Of a DNA stretch of 64,000 nt, positions 7,238 through 52,658 are shown in pieces. The number at the start of each line of letters is the position of its first letter. The stretch's first letter is position 1. The stretch covers positions 1,738 to 65,737 of the forward strand of contig JAIXRY010000006.1 of the NCBI GenBank assembly GCA_027484965.1, written 5' to 3'. The position numbers were made by a program, and so were the translations under genes. Origin of the DNA: a bacterium. GTDB taxonomy: Bacteria > Patescibacteriota > Minisyncoccia > Phycocordibacterales > UBA9973. The notes beneath the pieces are model-generated. The model had not been told where the DNA came from, did no database searches, and saw only the letters and a list, made by a program, of their open reading frames with translations.

Positions 7238-8935
7238 ATGGTTAAGCGTGTTATCGAGGTTTTAAGTCGCGAATTTTCTAATGTGCATCAAGCGGCGCTC
7301 CTTTTGGGAGTAGCTGCTTTTTTGTCTCAAATGCTGGGACTTGTTCGAGATAGGTTGCTTGCCAACATAATTGGACCTTCTACAAATCTTGATATTTATT
7401 ATAGTGCGTTTCGTATTCCTGATTTTCTTTTTGTTTCTGTTGCTTCATTGGTATCTATCACTGTTCTTATACCTTTTATTGTTGATGCTCTAAATAATGA
7501 TAGTGAATCAAAAGAAAAAGCTAGACTTTTGTTCTCAAATATATTTACAGTTTTTCTTCTTCTCATAACTTTTGTTTCATTTATTGTTTGGATATTTTTA
7601 CCCAAAATAATCCCTTTTGTTACTCCAGGATTTTTTGGAGAAGAGCTCCGTCAAGTCATAATAGTGAGTCGAATAATGTTATTACAGCCAATACTTCTTG
7701 GGCTTTCCAATTTATTTGGTTCTATCACTCAGCTTTATAAAAGATTCTTTGTTTGGGCTATTGCTCCACTCTTTTATAATCTAGGTGTTATATTTGGAAT
7801 TATTTTCTTTTACAAAAGCTTTGGAGTTGTAGGGCTTGCTTTTGGAGTTGTCATTGGAGCATTTATGCACTTACTCATACAGCTCCCAGTCTTATTTAAG
7901 TATAATTTCGTTCCTAAAATATCAAGTCCAAAAGTTTGGAAAGAAACAGGAAAGGTTTTTCTTCTTTCAATCCCAAGAACTATAGGGCTTTCTTGTAATA
8001 GCATCGCAGAGATTGCTATTATTTCTCTCGCTACAACATTTACTGTTGGTTCTGTGTCTGTGTATCAGCTTTCGTTTAATATGGAATCATTTCCAATAAC
8101 CATTATAGGTCTTTCTTATTCTGTTGCTGTGTTTCCACTTCTTGCATCCCTTTGGAAAAAAGGAGACCATCAAAAATATTTAGAGTATGTTTCTAATGTT
8201 GCACGGCAGATTATATTTTGGTCATTGCCAATAATTTCTCTTTTTGTTGTTCTTCGTGCTCATATTGTTCGTGTTGTTCTTGGTTCAGGGAATTTTTCTT
8301 GGACACATACACGACTTGTGGCAGCTTCTCTAGCGCTGTTTACTCTTGCTGTGATTGGACAGGGGATGATACATCTTTTTGTGAGAGCGTATTATGCAAA
8401 AGGTGATACTTACAAACCTTTGTTTGTTAATATTCTTTCAGCTAGTTTTATTATATTATCTGCACACCTCCTTTCTTCTTTATTTGCTAGTAATCATACC
8501 TTTAGATATTTTATAGAATCATTACTTCGTGTTGTAGATGTGCCTGGGACAGAAGTGTTAATGCTTCCACTTGCGTATAGTATAGGTTCACTCATAAATG
8601 CTTTCGTTCTTATAATTCTATTTTCTAGAGATATGAAAATGTATGGTTTTAATATAAAACCAATAGCAAGAACTTTCTTATATAGTTTTGGAGCATCCTG
8701 CTTTATTGGGCTCGGCGCATATATGACGCTTAATATTTTTGTACCTCTTTATGATCAATCAACATTTATTGGAATTCTTCTTCAGGGGATAGTGGCGGGA
8801 CTCGTTGGGACTTCTGTCGGATTAATTATCCTCAAATTATTGAAGTCACAAGAACTCGATAGTGCATATGTATCTATTCGTAAGAAATTCTGGAAGACCG
8901 AGGTCGTCTCAGATGCTCAAAATCCTGGATTATAA
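7238..8935 (+). CDS. murJ: lipid II flippase MurJ/MviN
   Basis: N-terminal signature LLGVAAFLSQMLGLVRDRLLANIIG...YYSAFRIPDFLF and about 14 TM segments, 565 aa. Confidence 0.8.
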   Translation: MVKRVIEVLSREFSNVHQAALLLGVAAFLSQMLGLVRDRLLANIIGPSTNLDIYYSAFRIPDFLFVSVASLVSITVLIPFIVDALNNDSESKEKARLLFSNIFTVFLLLITFVSFIVWIFLPKIIPFVTPGFFGEELRQVIIVSRIMLLQPILLGLSNLFGSITQLYKRFFVWAIAPLFYNLGVIFGIIFFYKSFGVVGLAFGVVIGAFMHLLIQLPVLFKYNFVPKISSPKVWKETGKVFLLSIPRTIGLSCNSIAEIAIISLATTFTVGSVSVYQLSFNMESFPITIIGLSYSVAVFPLLASLWKKGDHQKYLEYVSNVARQIIFWSLPIISLFVVLRAHIVRVVLGSGNFSWTHTRLVAASLALFTLAVIGQGMIHLFVRAYYAKGDTYKPLFVNILSASFIILSAHLLSSLFASNHTFRYFIESLLRVVDVPGTEVLMLPLAYSIGSLINAFVLIILFSRDMKMYGFNIKPIARTFLYSFGASCFIGLGAYMTLNIFVPLYDQSTFIGILLQGIVAGLVGTSVGLIILKLLKSQELDSAYVSIRKKFWKTEVVSDAQNPGL

Positions 8936-12310: not shown

Positions 12311-13360
12311 TTATTCATCATCACTATCTATTTTATCCAAAAGGATTGTTTCGAGTTCTGGAGACGCGCCTGTTATGCGGGTCACATCCTTGTCTATCTT
12401 CTTGAGTTCTTTTCCTGAACTATTGTAATGATTTATCACTGTACCAAGACTTCCACCTAATTTTTTGTGATATTCTTCATACACTTTTAGATGTTTTCCG
12501 AGTTCTTCGACGCGCTTCACGATATCTTTTGCGCTTTCTTCTATCTGCATCGCTTTCAGACCTTGGAGGACTGTTTGGAGATATGCGAGGAATGAAGTAG
12601 GAGATACGATGATCACTTTGTATTTACCAGCGGCGCGTTGAATCAGATTTTCTGTGTCTTCTGTGACTGCGCCGATTTTGTTTACGAGTAAGTCGTAATA
12701 TATTGCTTCATGAGGAATGAACATAAATGCGAAGTCCATTGTGTTGTCGTTTGGCTTTATATATTTTGAAGTTTCTACAATTCTATTTTTCAAATCGTTT
12801 AAGAATATTTTTTCGAAACGTTCTTTTTCGGCAGGGTCATTTGTCTCTGTAATACGATTATAATTCTCGAGAGAGAATTTTGAATCGATAGGGATAATCT
12901 TGTCTTTGACGAAAACTACAGCATCAACAATGTTTCCATCTGGAAAAGTGTATTGCATTTGATAGCTTCCAGTAGGGAGGACATTTTTTAAAAGAGTTTC
13001 GAGATAATATTCACCCAAGATTCCGCGTTGCTTTGGATTTTTCAAGATGTCTTGGAGGTTTTTGAGTTGGTCTGCGAATGAGACTACTTGTTTGTTGGTC
13101 TCGTCGAGACGGGTGAGCTTCTCTGTAATATCACGAATGAGCTTCTGAGATTCTGTGGCTTGGGTTATATTGCTTTTGTTATTCTCACCAATTTTCTCGT
13201 CTACGACACGAGAGAGTTCTTGCATTTGAGAAAGGAGGAGTTGAAGACCTGTATTGTCCTCCTTAACTTCTGGTTTTTTGGAGATTTTTGAGAGAGTTAT
13301 ACTTACAAAAACTATAAGTATAATAACGAGAATTGAGAGAATTATAAGGATTGTTGTCAT
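12311..13360 (-). CDS. rmuC: DNA recombination protein RmuC
   Basis: N-terminal TM helix, a coiled-coil, then RmuC-domain motifs (QRGILGEYYLETLL, IDSKFS, FMFIPHE, IVSPTSFLAYL). Confidence 0.75.
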   Translation of the reverse strand: MTTILIILSILVIILIVFVSITLSKISKKPEVKEDNTGLQLLLSQMQELSRVVDEKIGENNKSNITQATESQKLIRDITEKLTRLDETNKQVVSFADQLKNLQDILKNPKQRGILGEYYLETLLKNVLPTGSYQMQYTFPDGNIVDAVVFVKDKIIPIDSKFSLENYNRITETNDPAEKERFEKIFLNDLKNRIVETSKYIKPNDNTMDFAFMFIPHEAIYYDLLVNKIGAVTEDTENLIQRAAGKYKVIIVSPTSFLAYLQTVLQGLKAMQIEESAKDIVKRVEELGKHLKVYEEYHKKLGGSLGTVINHYNSSGKELKKIDKDVTRITGASPELETILLDKIDSDDE

Positions 13361-13442
13361 GAGATAATTTTATCATAGTTAGTAAATAAAACGAATGTAT
13401 ATAAGGTTTATTTGGAAAATATGAATACAAGATACAAAATAC

Positions 13443-13471
13443 TTGCTTTTTTGTTTTATATATGCTATAAT
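13443..13471 (+). promoter_or_regulatory. consensus-like sigma70 promoter (TTGCTT - 17 bp - TATAAT)
   Basis: -35 at 13443-13448, exact 17-bp spacer, and -10 TATAAT at 13466-13471. It faces a ~770-bp region with no convincing ORF that ends at the terminator at 14215-14250. Confidence 0.5.
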
Positions 13472-13753
13472 ATTTTTAGTTAAGTTCTTTGAGTATTCAC
13501 CTGAATCGCGAACAGGTGATAGTGAAAGCTCAGTTTTTATTTTATATAGAAATTCTGATTAGTGTTGATACTTTATCAGCGGGGTTGTGAAAAATCAGTT
13601 ATCAGAATAATTTCTTTTGGGGTTTGATATATTTCAAATTTATTCTAAAACTCCAAGTAATAAGTAAAGAGCGGATTTTTTATTTAATGAATATCTGCTG
13701 GTATTTTTACCACTTGTGAAAGCATGCAAAAAACTGTCTTAAAGAATTTACTG

Positions 13754-13773
13754 CCACGAACTTATGTTCGTGG
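13754..13773. promoter_or_regulatory. putative LexA/SOS box: 20-bp palindrome CCACGAAC-TTAT-GTTCGTGG (GAAC-N4-GTTC class)
   Basis: Perfect 8-bp arms around a 4-bp spacer, of the same GAAC-N4-GTTC type as the box in the lexA promoter at 52637-52652. Only these two instances occur in the whole window. The ATG of the 71-aa ORF at 13764 lies inside it. Confidence 0.5.
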
Positions 13774-13994
13774 CTTCTTTGTTTTTATTTGCAAAATTAA
13801 TTTTAAATGGTACTCTTTGGTTAGATTACTACTTACAATCGTCCGAACATAAAGGAAACCAAATTCTCTTGAATTGGTTTCGGAAAAAACATCACGGAAA
13901 AGATATGAGTAATAGATTATGTATACCCATAAAAAATGTTTATCATTTTTTCATAGGGTTGTTCTTAATAAAATTTTAAAATACTTGAATTGCA

Positions 13995-14198
13995 GAACTG
14001 AAACATCTAAGTACGCAAATTAAATTCAAGTAAATTCTATGAGTAGTTGCGAGCGAAAGTAGAATAGCCCAAACCATAAAAAATTTTACGATGCGAAACT
14101 ATTTTATGGGGTTGTAGGACTCCCTTGGGAGTATCCTGAGTAATACGAAGTCGGAGATGCTTTGTGTGAATCTGCCGGCACCATCCGGTAAGGCTAAT
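13995..14198 (+). rRNA. orphan fragment of 23S rRNA domain I (E. coli positions ~190-445), probably a pseudogene or derived ncRNA
   Basis: Contains the universal 23S motifs GAACTGAAACATCTAAGTA, AGTAGTTGCGAGCGAAAGTAG (compare AGTAGCGGCGAGCGAA), AGCCCAAACC, GGGGTTGTAGGAC, ATCCTGAGTA and CACCATCCGGTAAGGCTAA. Homology stops abruptly and is followed by a terminator. A weak, degenerate rRNA-like extension may run upstream to ~13930 (CATAGGGT...). Confidence 0.65.
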
Positions 14199-14214
14199 TT
14201 TGAAATTTTTTAAA

Positions 14215-14250
14215 CCGAGTCCTCTAATATACTGTGAGGCTCGGTTTTTT
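14215..14250 (+). terminator. intrinsic terminator (CCGAGTCCTC...GAGGCTCGG + T6)
   Basis: Long imperfect hairpin followed by TTTTTT, 17 nt after the end of the 23S-like fragment and 48 nt before the uvrB start. Confidence 0.7.
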
Positions 14251-14297
14251 ATTTGGCTTTTTTTATTTCTCAAAATAGCGTATTCTTATATGTATAA

Positions 14298-16388
14298 ATG
14301 GCTAAAGAATCAATATTTAAATTAAAGAGTAATTACAAGCCAGATGGTGACCAGCCGGTCGCTATTTCAGAGCTTGTAAAAGGGATAGAAAAGGGTTTAC
14401 AAAAACAAACACTTCTTGGTGCTACTGGTACAGGTAAGACATTTACTGTGGCGAATGTTATACAAGAAATAAATAAACCTGCACTCATTATTGCTCACAA
14501 CAAAACTCTCGCAGCTCAGCTTGCTCAAGAATTTCGTGAATTTTTCCCTGATGCTGCTGTACACTATTTCGTATCATACTATGACTATTATCAGCCAGAG
14601 GCATATATGCCAGCGTCTGATACATATATTGAAAAAGATGCACAAATCAACAAAGAGATTGACCGTCTTCGTCATGCGACAACTCAAGCACTCCTTACAC
14701 GTAAAGATGTGATTATTGTTGCTTCTGTATCGTGTATATACGGTCTCGGTAGTCCAAAGGAGTACGAAAGTGTAAATCTAAAAATTGAAAAAGGAATGAA
14801 GATAGAGAGAAATGAATTGATGAAAAGATTGATTGAAATTCATTTCACTCGCACACAAGCAGATCTTTCGCCTGCACAATTTCGTGTGATTGGTAATAGA
14901 GTAGAGCTTATGCCTGTGTCTGAGACTATTATGTATCAGATAAATCTAAAAGGTGATAAAGTTGATTCTATTATAGCTATTGATGCTGTATCTTCTACAA
15001 TCATAAAAGATTGCGAACATCTTTTTGTTTTCCCTGCGAAGCACTTCATTACAGCTGATGATAAAAAAGAAAAAGCAATAAAAGATATCAAAAAAGAATT
15101 GGATGCCCAATTGAAATTTTTTGAAAAAGAAGGGAAGCTTCTTGAAGCTGAAAGAATAAAAAGAAGAACAAATTATGATCTCGCCATGATACGTGAAGTC
15201 GGATATTGTAATGGTATCGAGAACTATTCTCGTGTCTTATCTGGCAAAAAAGAAGGTGAACCACCAGAAACTCTTTTGTCATATTTTCCTCACGACAAAA
15301 AAGGTAATCCAGAATTTATAACATTTATAGATGAATCACACGTAACAATTCCACAACTCCAAGGAATGTATGCAGGAGACGCTTCTCGTAAGAAGACTCT
15401 TGTTGATTTTGGATTTCGTCTTCCGTCAGCAAAAGATAACAGACCTCTAAAATATCCAGAATTCGCAGATAGAATAGGGCAGGTAATATATGTGTCAGCA
15501 ACTCCAAGTGCTTATGAAAAAGAAGAGAGTTCTAAAATTGTAGAGCAAATTATTCGTCCGACAGGTCTTATTGATCCAGAAATACTTATTAAGCCAGTTA
15601 CTCCAAGTAGTGAATATATAGGACAAGTGCAAGATTTTATTCTTGAAACAGAGAAGACTATAAAGAAAGGTTTTCGTGTGCTTGCGACTACTCTCACAAA
15701 GAAAATGGCTGAAGACTTGTCTGTATACCTAAAAGACAGAGGAATAAAAGCAGAGTATCTTCATAGTGAAATCAAGACTATTGAACGTATTCAAATTCTT
15801 ACACAATTTCGTAAGGGAGACTTCGATGTGCTTGTAGGTGTGAACCTCCTTCGTGAGGGCTTGGACTTACCAGAGGTTGCTTTGATTGGAATTCTCGATG
15901 CTGACAAAGAAGGCTTCCTTCGTTCTGAAACATCTCTCATTCAGACAATTGGACGTGCTGCTCGTAATTCTGAAGGGCGAGTAATTCTCTATGCAGATAA
16001 GATGACAGGCTCACTTGAACGTGCAATAGGTGAGACAACACGTCGTCGCAATATTCAGCTTGCGTATAATAAAAAGCATGGAATTACACCAAAGACCATT
16101 CTGAAAAAAATTAATGATATTACAGAAGCTTTTGAATCTACTCACGGCAAAGCAGTGAACGCTGAACTTGCTCTTGATATAGAATTATTTAAAAATACTC
16201 TTTCAAAAGAAGGAAAGAAAGGTAATCTTGCAAAACTTTCTGATGAAGAACGTGAAGGTTTAGTATATGACAAGATTATAAAAATAAAGGAGAAGGCTAT
16301 GAAAGACGCGGTGAAAGCTCTAGATTTCGAGACTGCTGCAATATTGCGTGACGAGATAGGAGTACTTCTTGATAGAAAGTCAAAATAA
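14298..16388 (+). CDS. uvrB: excinuclease ABC subunit B
   Basis: Helicase motifs (GATGTGKTFT, DESH), the beta-hairpin region and a C-terminal UvrB/UvrC interaction domain (FETAAILRDEI); 696 aa. Confidence 0.9.
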   Translation: MAKESIFKLKSNYKPDGDQPVAISELVKGIEKGLQKQTLLGATGTGKTFTVANVIQEINKPALIIAHNKTLAAQLAQEFREFFPDAAVHYFVSYYDYYQPEAYMPASDTYIEKDAQINKEIDRLRHATTQALLTRKDVIIVASVSCIYGLGSPKEYESVNLKIEKGMKIERNELMKRLIEIHFTRTQADLSPAQFRVIGNRVELMPVSETIMYQINLKGDKVDSIIAIDAVSSTIIKDCEHLFVFPAKHFITADDKKEKAIKDIKKELDAQLKFFEKEGKLLEAERIKRRTNYDLAMIREVGYCNGIENYSRVLSGKKEGEPPETLLSYFPHDKKGNPEFITFIDESHVTIPQLQGMYAGDASRKKTLVDFGFRLPSAKDNRPLKYPEFADRIGQVIYVSATPSAYEKEESSKIVEQIIRPTGLIDPEILIKPVTPSSEYIGQVQDFILETEKTIKKGFRVLATTLTKKMAEDLSVYLKDRGIKAEYLHSEIKTIERIQILTQFRKGDFDVLVGVNLLREGLDLPEVALIGILDADKEGFLRSETSLIQTIGRAARNSEGRVILYADKMTGSLERAIGETTRRRNIQLAYNKKHGITPKTILKKINDITEAFESTHGKAVNAELALDIELFKNTLSKEGKKGNLAKLSDEEREGLVYDKIIKIKEKAMKDAVKALDFETAAILRDEIGVLLDRKSK

Positions 16389-23911: not shown

Positions 23912-23984
23912 GGGCCGTTAGCTCATCTGGTAGAGCACATCATTTGCAATGATGGGGTGGCAGGTTCGAGTCCTGTACGGTCCA
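23912..23984 (+). tRNA. tRNA-Ala (anticodon UGC)
   Basis: Acceptor GGGCCGT/ACGGTCC with the G3:U70 alanine identity pair, anticodon stem CATCA/TGATG with loop TTTGCAA, T-loop TTCGAGT, discriminator A. It is followed by the terminator at 23993-24020. Confidence 0.85.
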
Positions 23985-23992
23985 CAAACAAA

Positions 23993-39507: not shown

Positions 39508-39579
39508 GCGTGTATAGTTCAGTGGTAGAACGCTGTCCTGATAAGACAGAGGTCCTTGGTCCGATTCCAAGTACACGCA
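39508..39579 (+). tRNA. tRNA-Ile (anticodon GAU)
   Basis: Acceptor GCGTGTA/TACACGC, D-arm GTTC-AGTGGTA-GAAC, anticodon stem CTGTC/GACAG with loop CTGATAA, T-arm CTTGG-TCCGATT-CCAAG. It is followed by a terminator (AAACCCCAC...GTGAGGTTTTTT). Confidence 0.85.
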
Positions 39580-39646
39580 CAATAAATAAAACCCCACTTA
39601 AATATTGTGAGGTTTTTTATTTAAATTAAGCTATACTAAATAATGT

Positions 39647-40563: not shown

Positions 40564-41772
40564 ATGGATAAAGATTTTATTACAAAACAAAAAACAAGAA
40601 CATCTTTAATTCTATCTGTTTTTATTACAGGAGTTATAATCTTTGGTGTTGGGTACTACACGGGGAGTAGGGGTTCTATAGTTAACGCTGAAACGCTAGG
40701 ATCTTCAAAAGCTAATGCTGATTTAACTTCATTTTGGCGAGTATGGAGATTGATAGATGAAAAATCTCCCAGCGCTAAAGAAAGTACCACTGAAAAGCGA
40801 TTGTATGGCGCTATACAAGGTCTTGCAAGTTCTTTGGATGATCCATATACAGTATTTTTCCCACCAGAAGAAAATAAGGCTTTTTCTGAGACAATTTCTG
40901 GAGAATTTGGTGGAATCGGTATGGAGGTGGGTATAAAGGATGGGTTACTCACTGTTGTGTCCCCTTTGAAAGATACTCCTGCGTATAAATCAGGAATTAA
41001 ATCCGGAGATATTGTTTTCAAAATAGATGACACATTCACTAAGGATTTATCTGTTGATAATGCTATAAAATTGATCAGAGGTAAAAAGGGTACAGAAGTA
41101 AAACTTACTATAATAAGAAAAGATATTAAAGAGCCAATAGAGTTTAAAGTCGTTCGTGATACTATAATTGTTCCTGTTGTTGAAAGTGAAGATAAGAATG
41201 GTGTTCATATTATTCACGTTTATACATTTTCAGAAAATGTTGAAGCTAAATTTAGAACAGCTTTAAGACAATTTTATGTTTCAGGAAATAAAAAATTAAT
41301 CATTGATCTTAGAGGAAATCCTGGAGGATACTTAGAATCAGCTATTGATATGGTGAGTTGGTTTTTGCCTAGTGGTGAGATTGTTGTAAGAGAAGATTTT
41401 GGAAATAATAAAGAACAAAAAATTCACGCAAGTAAAGGATATAATGTTTTTGGAAATGATTACAAAATAGCAATTCTTATTGATGGAGGCTCTGCTTCTG
41501 CTTCAGAAATATTTGCCGGTGCAATGCAAGATCATAAGAAGGCTGTTCTTGTTGGTAAAAAAACTTTTGGAAAAGGGTCTGTACAAGAAGTTATTCCTAT
41601 TACAAGTGATACATCTTTAAAAATTACTATTGCAAAATGGTTTACGCCAAATGGTTTATCAATCTCTAAAAATGGCCTTAATCCAGATGTTGATGTATCT
41701 GTTACAGAAGAAGATATCTTAGCAGGTAAGGATGTGCAGATGGAGAAAGCAATATCAGTATTAAATAATTAA
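40564..41772 (+). CDS. ctpA: carboxyl-terminal processing protease (peptidase S41) with PDZ domain
   Basis: PDZ (GIKSGDIVFKIDD) and S41 catalytic region (IIDLRGNPGGYLESAI, GSASASEIFAGA, K in the KKAVLVG region). Confidence 0.8.
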   Translation: MDKDFITKQKTRTSLILSVFITGVIIFGVGYYTGSRGSIVNAETLGSSKANADLTSFWRVWRLIDEKSPSAKESTTEKRLYGAIQGLASSLDDPYTVFFPPEENKAFSETISGEFGGIGMEVGIKDGLLTVVSPLKDTPAYKSGIKSGDIVFKIDDTFTKDLSVDNAIKLIRGKKGTEVKLTIIRKDIKEPIEFKVVRDTIIVPVVESEDKNGVHIIHVYTFSENVEAKFRTALRQFYVSGNKKLIIDLRGNPGGYLESAIDMVSWFLPSGEIVVREDFGNNKEQKIHASKGYNVFGNDYKIAILIDGGSASASEIFAGAMQDHKKAVLVGKKTFGKGSVQEVIPITSDTSLKITIAKWFTPNGLSISKNGLNPDVDVSVTEEDILAGKDVQMEKAISVLNN

Positions 41773-51828: not shown

Positions 51829-52398
51829 TTAGTATTTTCGAATAACAGCTTTTACTATTGCTGTAATGCGAAGATATTGTTCTGGATAAATATTTTTGAA
51901 GTTTTTGTTTGCTGGTTCAAGCCATACCTTACCACCTTCTTTTCGGAAATATTTCATTGTAGATTCTCCGTCTATATCTGCAATAACAATATCTCCATCT
52001 TTTGCGACTTCTGTTTTCTCGACTAGGACCATGTCCCCGTCAGCAATATGAGCGTCTATCATAGACTCCCCATCCACTTTCAATAGGAATGAATTAGCCT
52101 TCTTTGATGTCGTTAGATATGAGTCTATATTAATAGTGTTCAATTCCACTTCCTCTGCATTACTTGGAAATCCTGCTTTGATTGATCCTAAAAGTGGAAT
52201 TTCATTAAAAGATTTTTCTGCTATTAATCTTCCTAAATGATCTTTTGAAACAAAACCTGCATCAATAAACTTTTCCACAAGACGAGCAACTGCATTCTTT
52301 GATTTAAAACCAAACAGAGCCATCATCTCTGTGTATGTGGGCATTCTGTTTTCTTTTTCGTGAAAGTATATTAATTTTTGTTTGTAGTTTTGTTCCAT
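51829..52398 (-). CDS. lexA: LexA repressor (wHTH plus S24 peptidase)
   Basis: N-terminal wHTH (MPTYTEMMALFGFKSKNAVARLVEKFIDAGFV), an Ala-Gly cleavage site (SIKAGFP), catalytic Ser (VDGESM) and Lys (AIVKAVIRK). Confidence 0.85.
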   Translation of the reverse strand: MEQNYKQKLIYFHEKENRMPTYTEMMALFGFKSKNAVARLVEKFIDAGFVSKDHLGRLIAEKSFNEIPLLGSIKAGFPSNAEEVELNTINIDSYLTTSKKANSFLLKVDGESMIDAHIADGDMVLVEKTEVAKDGDIVIADIDGESTMKYFRKEGGKVWLEPANKNFKNIYPEQYLRITAIVKAVIRKY

Positions 52399-52401
52399 GA
52401 A

Positions 52402-52596
52402 TTAAAAAAGTGGAAGCATGTGAAAGAATTTAGTAAATATATTTCCACTTGAGTGTTGGATTAATTTTTTGCGAAGTAGTTTGTGATCACGTGCTTCTTT
52501 TGCATATTCTTCACCTGAGAGAATCTTCATATCAATTTTTTTGTTTATGTTGTGAATTTCTCTTTCTATGATTTTTAGATATTGTTCTTTACTCAT
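52402..52596 (-). CDS. small hypothetical protein, first gene of the lexA operon
   Basis: 64 aa; stop is 3 nt before the lexA start; sits directly downstream of the SOS-box promoter. Confidence 0.45.
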   Translation of the reverse strand: MSKEQYLKIIEREIHNINKKIDMKILSGEEYAKEARDHKLLRKKLIQHSSGNIFTKFFHMLPLF

Positions 52597-52629
52597 AATG
52601 CTTAAATATTATTATCCTGCTATGTATTT

Positions 52630-52658
52630 ATTATAAGTGAACGCTCGTTCACACGCAA
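52630..52658 (-). promoter_or_regulatory. SOS-regulated promoter: -35 TTGCGT (52653-52658), -10 TATAAT (52630-52635), with LexA box GTGAACGAGCGTTCAC (52637-52652) filling the 17-bp spacer
   Basis: Reading the minus strand: TTGCGT-GTGAACGAGCGTTCACT-TATAAT, 34 nt upstream of the small-ORF ATG. The box is a GAAC-N4-GTTC palindrome (Cheo-box class). Confidence 0.7.

Follow-up and report, generated by a model that had tools for sequence, protein, structure and literature searches.

Introduction

The leaders of the ribosomal proteins L1, L10, L20 and S15 are short RNAs in the 5' untranslated regions (5' UTRs) of ribosomal-protein operons, where they act in cis and show, outside the ribosome, a protein-binding surface like that of ribosomal RNA (rRNA), a likeness that arose by convergence. 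We describe an element of ~240 nucleotides (nt) that matches domain I of 23S rRNA and lies between rmuC and uvrB within a 64,000-nt stretch of a Patescibacteria genome (GenBank assembly GCA_027484965.1, contig JAIXRY010000006.1, positions 1,738 to 65,737 of the forward strand; this whole stretch is called the window). The mode proposed for the element matches that of the leaders; unlike them, it is a true homologue of a whole sub-domain, it has its own terminator, and it has no ribosomal-protein gene adjacent (the neighbors are rmuC and uvrB here, and SDR/uvrB, a UvrD-type helicase-nuclease, or LOG/gyrB in other lineages). The element is a homologous copy of 23S domain I that is trimmed and closes on itself, with conserved promoter and terminator signals and a fold under selection, and copies of this kind occur in several Patescibacteria lineages. 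We give about an even chance to the reading that it is a small gene of its own, i.e., an independently transcribed, rRNA-derived structured RNA, which would be made as a discrete molecule of about 240–430 nt.

Compared with 23S domain I as represented by the Rfam bacterial large-subunit (LSU) model (LSU_rRNA_bacteria, RF02541), the element is alike in sequence, in secondary structure and in having a boxA-type leader motif upstream, and differs by its ~240 nt length, the loss of two arms, an AU-rich closing helix and terminator of its own, and its place between rmuC and uvrB. Split rRNAs (23S with RNase III-excised intervening sequences, scrambled organellar rRNA, eukaryotic 5.8S) also provide a separate piece of large-subunit rRNA, and the long helix flanking the element resembles an RNase III stem; however, split-rRNA pieces are essential and conserved at the level of rRNA, whereas the element changes fast, is distributed patchily, and has related real 23S genes with an intact domain I. 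The Y RNAs and YrlA (tRNA-like, partner of the Ro protein Rsr) and 6S RNA are non-coding RNAs that copy another nucleic acid and bind its proteins, as is proposed for the element; they copy tRNA or promoter DNA, whereas the element copies an rRNA domain. The Rsr/Y RNA system is tied to UV stress and to the turnover of rRNA; among the neighbors of the element no Ro-like gene was seen. rRNA pseudogenes and truncated rrn operons are, like the element, incomplete copies outside an operon, probably from partial duplication, but are expected to have neutral pair-breaking changes and lost expression signals, and the element shows neither.

Rfam has no family for the element beyond the LSU model itself, and no description of a stand-alone 23S-domain-like RNA was found in the searchable full-text literature. 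Two surveys of rRNA in bacteria of the candidate phyla radiation (CPR), made with the same covariance model, merged or discarded partial matches and left orphan fragments unmentioned. If functional, the element would be, within the scope of Rfam and the searchable literature, the first bacterial non-coding RNA gene that is a homologous trimmed rRNA domain and not a convergent mimic. It would then also offer a handle on the proteins that recognize the early-folding 23S core in CPR bacteria, whose ribosomes and biogenesis machinery are reduced and biochemically unstudied. A preprint (bioRxiv 10.1101/2024.11.29.625318) credits CPR bacteria with about half of the usual ribosome biogenesis factors.

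Results

Identity and extent of the element

A covariance-model scan of window positions 13300–14350 matched 13971–14208 (+ strand) to RF02541 with 106.6 bits and E = 1.8e-32 (the gathering score of the model is 50). The preliminary description of this stretch had read the region as an orphan 23S domain I fragment that belongs to no rRNA operon, and had suggested a covariance-model alignment as a check. That reading is borne out by the match and by the lack of any other rRNA-like piece in the window (Rfam in gathering and E-value modes), and the sequence blocks it had listed were all found, in the stated order, at 13995–14197. A blastn comparison with a full rRNA operon as query gave only the element and one tRNA match in the window, and no further rRNA similarity was found in 10-kb flanks of relatives. 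The corresponding elements of relatives scored 106.5 and 109.6 bits against RF02541. The element is not a full LSU gene, since it is without the six domains and peptidyl-transferase center held in one ~2.9 kb gene.

The match covers model positions 37–482 with two internal deletions. The first skips 133 nt after position 46 (arm 47–179) and the second 87 nt around 320–406, so the element is homologous to positions 37–46, 180–320 and 406–482 in both sequence and secondary structure. We take the 133-nt gap to correspond to approximately helices H5–H10, and the 87-nt gap to the distal part of the next arm, H19/H20. The ten nt at the start of the match pair with the ten at its end, in place of the GC-rich 37–46/473–482 helix of real 23S; with this closing helix, the folded element extends slightly beyond the coordinates first given for it. 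Homology ended at AAGGCTAA (14190–14197), and the hairpin and U-tract of an intrinsic terminator, T2, began 17 nt later, as the preliminary description had said. The element and its closing helix are:

13968–14212, + strand: mini-domain I RNA (from covariance-model alignment, minimum free energy [MFE] fold with z = -3.2, RNAalifold, and pair counts)
~13970–13983 with 14196–14210, + strand: AU-rich closing helix of the mini-domain, enclosing the 23S helices of model positions 180–472

The enclosed helices comprise, in the first part, the GAACUGAAACAUCUAAGUA hairpin, the AGUAGNNGCGAGCGAA hairpin, a long-range helix AGCC/GGCU and a variable hairpin, followed by the stump of the next arm (GGACUCCC-UUGG-GAGUAUCC), a hairpin with a GGAGA loop, and the hairpin GCCGG-CACCAU-CCGGU.

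The whole-window Rfam scan missed this 106-bit match, in both gathering and E-value mode, because of its speed filters; the match was seen only when 1.4 kb or less was searched. Ordinary annotation would not report the element, and filtered Rfam scans may overlook short rRNA-derived elements systematically.

Divergence and constraint on the fold

The element was compared, over 245 nt, with those of relatives of the window species (L004, a metagenome-assembled genome [MAG] from NCBI; L006, an ENA scaffold; further assemblies are L007, a second MAG, and L005, a Logan contig). Among named sequences, the best UvrB relatives of the window species are Paceibacteria. Four-fold degenerate site divergence was taken from uvrB, rmuC and uvrA.

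Window vs. L006: UvrB identity 98%; four-fold sites 24–32%; element 17.1%
Window vs. L004: UvrB identity 96%; four-fold sites 30–33%; element 10.2%

The divergence of T2 in the same comparisons was 0–2.5%; a 30-nt run (14168–14197), T2, and several promoter-proximal runs were invariant among the three sequences. Real rRNA would barely change at such a distance, and by that general expectation, on which the figure rests, the element would be changing about ten-fold faster.

For the count of pair changes, the consensus structure of Rfam, which does not derive from these sequences, was mapped onto the window. Against L006 there were 15 changed pairs (5 double-compensatory, 5 one-sided but canonical-keeping, 5 other), and against L004 there were 11 (4, 3 and 4, respectively), so that 10/15 and 7/11 changed pairs stayed canonical. 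Compensatory changes in relatives include CAUAAAAA/UUUUAUG to CACGUGAG/CUCACGUG and AAUACGAAGU/GCUUUGUGU to AGGAUAAGGU/GCCUUGUCC; the closing helix changed within the genus from AAAUUUUAAA/UUUGAAAUUU to AAAUUUCAGA/UCUGAAAUUU. In an alignment of six sequences RNAalifold recovered the rRNA helices unaided, with double changes at 25 of 59 pairs. With the Rfam-derived structure on the same six sequences, 87.5% of pair cells were paired, compared with 30–49% when the partners were slid, and 28 pairs had changes on both sides; the observed values were reached in 0 of 500 shuffles.

The element appears to be under a constraint of its own, weaker and different, which is neither neutral nor ribosomal, because its divergence is sub-neutral and its pairs are kept, yet it changes faster than real rRNA and a universally conserved block is substituted: in L006 the GAACUGAAACAUCUAAGUA block reads GAAAUGAAAUAUCUAAAUA, with four substitutions. 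The near-neutral drift of this hairpin loop would suit a decaying, functionless relic of a lost second rrn operon or of a partial 23S duplication, with its rRNA-like blocks kept by occasional gene conversion and by youth. The relic is somewhat unlikely in our estimate; divergence well under that of four-fold sites and changed stem pairs that mostly remain paired speak against it, as neutral pair-breaking was not what was found.

Authenticity of the junction

The preliminary description had allowed for a chimeric contig join at ~14200, and we considered whether a 23S read or contig end had been wrongly joined to the uvrB region. The observation in favor of such an artefact is that Logan k=31 contigs from three samples of the same species end or begin inside the element (window 14163–14196). 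The two contig sets, however, overlap by 34 nt (TGTGTGAATCTGCCGGCACCATCCGGTAAGGCTA) in agreement with the window. This 34-nt stretch is almost unchanged in real 23S genes, and breakage at it implies a k-mer repeat, i.e., a second copy in the same samples, most simply the normal 23S gene. The order rmuC, intergenic region, element, terminator, uvrB was present in four other assemblies (L004, L007, L006 and L005), and the L005 Logan contig crosses the element without a break. A chimeric join is also unlikely because the closing helix is formed between sequence right of the supposed join and sequence left of the element, and the internal deletions and diverged helices match no real 23S recovered. 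We therefore regard the artefact as having next to no probability, and the chimeric join was not borne out.

The closest real 23S genes recovered are in two rRNA operon contigs, L073 and L082, which are not of the window genus (the tRNA-Ala in their spacers and that of the window share only 73% identity). A 36-nt run of the element is identical in both; this identity to real 23S is a point in favor of the relic. The element breaks k-mer assemblies at a stretch common to real 23S. In the quality control of MAGs it could be taken for contamination, for a chimeric join or for a partial rRNA gene.

Relation to the ribosomal 23S

The element might instead be a true ribosomal component, with a 23S gene lacking this part of domain I and the fragment supplied in trans; the preliminary description had offered a piece of a split 23S as one of its options. 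The fragment is an exact sub-domain closed by one helix (model 37–46 with 473–482), it has rrn-type promoter and boxA signals, and the genome's own 23S was sought and not recovered. Against this, it diverges by 10–17% within the genus at 96–98% UvrB identity, where rRNA-like conservation was the expectation, with universally conserved nucleotides substituted; its content is very variable between lineages; more distant relatives have no such element upstream of uvrB; in the nearest real 23S genes (L073, L082) both this segment and the deleted arms are kept, with domain I intact; and the Logan breaks imply a second copy of the 34-nt stretch in the same samples. CPR 23S is ~2.8 kb, without only H9, H63 and H78 (PMC9297842). 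A split 23S piece is thus disfavored, and we hold a ribosomal role to be very improbable. By these comparisons the element is probably not a working part of the ribosome, given its rate, its variable content and patchy presence, the intact domain I of the nearest real 23S, and the size of CPR 23S.

Locus and predicted transcription unit

The entire 937-nt rmuC–uvrB intergenic region is conserved within the genus; only 28% of all intergenic columns were variable among the window, L006 and L004. From left to right the region contains:

12311–13360, - strand: RmuC
13443–13471, + strand: promoter P1 (-35 TTGCTT at 13443–13448, 17-nt spacer, extended -10 TGcTATAAT at 13463–13471)
13478–13752, + strand: RNA1, a conserved structured region (three-relative alignment and RNAalifold)
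13479–13492, + strand: boxA-type leader motif GTTAAGTTCTTTGA, directly after P1, with core GTTCTTTGA at 13484–13492
13753–13785, + strand: hairpin T1, GCCACGAAC-TTAT-GTTCGTGGC with U-rich tail (terminator scan)
13789–13816, + strand: promoter P2 (-35 TTGCAA at 13789–13794, 16-nt spacer, extended -10 TGgTACTCT at 13808–13816; read from sequence)
13823–13967, + strand: 5' extension of the mini-domain transcript, ~145 nt (relatives' alignments)
14213–14254, + strand: intrinsic terminator T2 (stem CCGAGuCCUC/GAGGCUCGG, 11-nt loop, UUUUUU; MFE fold)
14272–14297, + strand: 26 nt before the uvrB start codon, invariant in all relatives
14298–16388, + strand: UvrB, followed by UvrA and UvrC

The transcription unit of the element is probably about 13789–14254; that it is transcribed is predicted because its promoter and terminator signals are conserved. 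A promoter and a LexA-type palindrome upstream of the fragment had been noted in the preliminary description, and both were located (P1 and P2, and 13757–13770). P1 was read from sequence, is conserved in L006, L004 and L007, and was not listed by a consensus promoter scan. The boxA-type motif that follows P1 agrees at all 14 nt with a piece of the spacer ~75 nt upstream of the real 23S gene in L073, and its core was found 250 nt or less upstream of 82 of 95 real 23S genes compared with 24 of 600 control windows (4%); we take it to be the rrn antitermination boxA. Outside the window the motif is present in L004 and in L016, 49 nt before the L016 element (L014, L016 and L017 are three other Patescibacteria MAGs with orphan domain-I elements), differs by a single mismatch in L006, L014 and L139, and was not found in L017.

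RNA1 (~270 nt) had 9 pairs changed on both sides in the RNAalifold structure of the three relatives, and its 5' boxA segment was predicted to pair with 13737–13750, just before the terminator-like hairpin. It matched no Rfam family. RNA1 and the 5' extension were searched for similarity to 16S and 23S, and gave only the boxA match and a weak H9/H10 trace. RNA1 may represent either another non-coding RNA or an rRNA leader that has been remodelled.

T1 contains a perfect LexA/Cheo-type palindrome, CGAACTTATGTTCG, at 13757–13770 (CGAAC-N4-GTTCG). This box is 18 nt upstream of the P2 -35 and doubles as the terminator-like hairpin; it is a putative operator, terminator or both. The perfect GAAC-N4-GTTC within it (13758–13769) is one of only two in the window; the palindrome is assigned to the type of this genome's own SOS box because the other perfect copy sits in the promoter spacer of the window's lexA-like operon. 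One half-site is degenerate in L006.

The lexA-like gene (Peptidase_S24, 189 aa) is at 51829–52398 (- strand) and is preceded by a 64-aa open reading frame (ORF) at 52402–52596. The operon promoter reads TTGCGT-GTGAACGAGCGTTCACT-TATAAT, with the perfect GAAC-N4-GTTC of its spacer at ~52639–52650. The region 51829–52650 has the look of an SOS operon of the classic self-regulated type, here in a Patescibacteria genome.

The mini-domain transcript would probably start at ~13823, from P2. The segment 13783–13802 is invariant in the three relatives, and the P2 -10 varies (TACTCT/TAATCT/TATTCT) yet always keeps TAnnnT. The 5' extension is conserved with weak covariation (2 pairs); it contains conserved hairpins and a decayed H9/H10 trace, TTTTTTCATAGGGTTGTTC compared with ATTTCCCAATGGGGTAACCC in real 23S. 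In T2 the stem is formed by 14215–14224/14236–14244 with the U-run at 14245–14250, and 14221–14247 is invariant in relatives whose four-fold sites differ by 24–33%. The consensus terminator scan missed T2 because its loop is >8 nt. As for the relic, loss of expression signals was not found, since the sequence signals P1, P2, boxA and T2 are conserved in relatives; on the other side, the boxA leader and the H9/H10 trace point to duplication of a 23S 5' region.

A 370-nt insert between T2 and uvrB was seen in L004 (3540–3934) and L007 (4007–4401), and carries its own terminator and a small ORF (called at 46 aa); it is not in the window or L006.

We considered if the element could be a cis-acting leader of uvrB, where the P2 transcript would pass through the mimic and T2 would be an attenuator tuned by binding of a ribosomal protein or factor. 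The element is directly upstream of uvrB in the same orientation in the window genus and L139, and upstream of SDR-uvrB-uvrA in L014; the LexA-type box precedes P2, as in the lexA promoter, and none is found between T2 and uvrB; and the distance from T2 to the uvrB start is only 48 nt, in which no clear -35/-10 pair is seen. However, T2 is strong and invariant, with no alternative pairing to the closing helix apparent; the extra ORF and second terminator intervene in L004 and L007; a good promoter follows the element's terminator in L014; and the L016 and L017 elements are not followed by uvrB (the next gene in L017 is convergent). The invariant 26 nt (14272–14297) are probably uvrB's own promoter or 5' end, and uvrB probably has its own start because this segment stays with uvrB beyond the L004/L007 insert. 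We find a uvrB leader distinctly unlikely.

Similar elements in other genomes

A GTDB-wide pattern scan (one genome per GTDB species), which required the exact conserved blocks and the second deletion, gave the three orphan elements (L014, L016, L017), one real Paenibacillus 23S and one chance match. As the pattern was strict, three other element-bearing genomes is a lower bound. The chance match, in an actinobacterium, was within a coding region and was discarded. The elements were matched to the LSU model as follows.

L017: orphan LSU match, 224 bits, model positions 38–481
L016: orphan LSU match, 223 bits, model positions 37–483
L014: orphan LSU match, 162 bits, model positions 46–470

These are not part of a 23S gene and keep most or part of the first arm; H5–H10 are kept in L016 and L017, in part in L014, and not at all in the window. 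Each ends in an intrinsic terminator, and L017 has a clear promoter. Their closing helices are 10–15 bp and each is different (UCUCAGAAUAU/AUAUUCUGAGA, UUAAGAUUAAUUUAA/UUAAAUUAAUUUUAA, AAAAAUUCUU/AAGAAUUUUU); they do not come from 23S gene conversion because a 23S gene cannot supply such a helix. We make no claim that the element spans two classes, because, among named homologues, those nearest to L014 UvrB and to L017 GyrB come from Paceibacteria/Patescibacteria.

The Paenibacillus match (L013, P. oryzisoli NZ_JBCMUN010000024.1, 1–2832, - strand) is a full-length real 23S with 2886 bits, ~90 nt shorter than the model, and fits the pattern, in which the distal arm (H19/H20 region) could be no longer than 36 nt. 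Apparently, then, the arm missing from the mini-domains can also be absent from a genuine 23S.

The family of the element was searched with nhmmer. A metagenome scan with the 27-mer GAATCTGCCGGCACCATCCGGTAAGGC from inside the 34-nt stretch, which is a common sequence of real 23S, gave at least 120 loci; among the matches listed all were ordinary full-length 23S, with no new orphan elements. A phage collection searched for the element gave no match, and a scan of viral contigs gave one unrelated 23S remnant inside a tRNA array.

On this contig (L138, IMGVR_UViG_3300007314_000040, classed viral) nine tRNA genes are grouped in arrays, and there is also an IS605-orfB-I (TnpB omega) RNA. The remnant, at ~7717–7990 (- strand) between tRNA-Pro and tRNA-Asn, is a different trimmed 23S domain I, with the distal arm deleted and the GAACUGAAACAUC loop replaced by a short hairpin.

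Two lineages have the element upstream of uvrB: one is the window genus, and the other comprises L014 and its relatives L139–L142 (UvrB 90% identical to L014). In L139–L142 the form is reduced, and nothing is left but the GAACUGAAACAUCUAAGUA hairpin, two further small hairpins, GGUAAGGCU and a terminator. In L014 it precedes an SDR-uvrB-uvrA cluster, and a good promoter follows the element's terminator; the L016 element is beside a UvrD-type helicase-nuclease, and that of L017 has LOG/gyrB as neighbors. The DNA-repair neighbors and the LexA-type box are hints that would link the element to the damage response. The sample is small, however, and shared ancestry of the tgt...uvrB slot could explain the recurrent position.

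An imperfect palindrome, ACAACACAGGAACGTGTTGT, is located at L014 7560–7600 (- strand), downstream of the promoter after the element. It may serve as an operator for the SDR-uvrB-uvrA cluster in the L014 lineage.

Discussion

Of the options put forward in the preliminary description, an exapted non-coding RNA or protein decoy fits best as far as the RNA is concerned, in view of the compensated fold, the closing helices of each lineage's own and the sub-neutral rate; the decoy function is what we infer from sequence comparison. The option of a duplication relic describes the probable origin, since the boxA leader is retained, and does not describe the present state.

For the small RNA gene, the following course may be proposed. 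A 5' part of 23S would have been duplicated together with its boxA leader; the copy has lost two peripheral arms and gained a helix joining its 5' and 3' ends, giving a closed unit. The RNA would present the surface of the early-folding large-subunit core in trans and bind the protein(s) that normally recognize that part of nascent 23S, i.e., early-assembly ribosomal proteins or an assembly factor, and would act as a decoy or buffer by titrating them. The preliminary description had named L24, L22 and L4 as possible partners. The deleted arm is presumably the main L24/L4 site, so that these two are less likely as partners. Speculatively, the level of the RNA might follow rRNA transcription, and possibly DNA damage, through the rrn-like signals and the nearby LexA-type operator; damage-linked regulation would fit the recurrent position next to uvrB. 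It could also be speculated that the long AU helix serves as an RNase III processing stem, like those flanking pre-23S. A broader proposal, that the Patescibacteria have a class of trans-acting rRNA-domain paralogues, each a self-closing mini-domain I under rrn-like and SOS-linked control, that titrate early 50S assembly proteins or a biogenesis factor and so couple ribosome production to rRNA transcription or DNA damage, is unlikely in our judgment.

Several observations weigh against a functional RNA gene. Between lineages, any one element resembles real 23S more than it resembles the others, which also counts in favor of a relic, and a single family with one function, or a single origin, is not proven. 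The GTDB-wide scan gave only three other genomes, a number that is a lower bound. L139 retains a mere stump; its relatives L143 and L145, which like it are L014 relatives, have no intergenic space at uvrB and no element; and no element was found upstream of uvrB in L008, L010 and L011, relatives of the window at 77–78% UvrB identity, nor, more generally, in more distant relatives with UvrB 77–94% identical. This patchy presence looks like that of something dispensable or decaying. Much of the covariation among the six sequences could have been inherited from each lineage's own 23S, and the within-genus changes and the closing helices alone escape this objection. In addition, the decoy function is deduced and the window genome's own 23S was not found when sought.

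The relic reading draws on much of the same material, as reduction is graded (L016/L017 more complete than L014, and L014 than the window; a stump in L139; nothing in L143/L145). The closing helix, however, has no 23S counterpart and differs in sequence in every lineage, and it is conserved or compensated along with the promoters and T2, which speaks against a relic.

Minor observations in the window

A sub-threshold match to Rickettsia sRNA47 was obtained at 41460–41602 (- strand) with 38.9 bits (gathering 60) and E = 2e-6; it is inside or antisense to the ORF 40564–41772 and is probably spurious.

The genes for tRNA-Ala(TGC) (23912–23985) and tRNA-Ile(GAT) (39508–39580) lie by themselves, 15 kb from each other, and the 64-kb window contains no rRNA gene. 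These two tRNAs are usually in the 16S–23S spacer. The organism's rRNA genes are located elsewhere and are probably without these spacer tRNAs.

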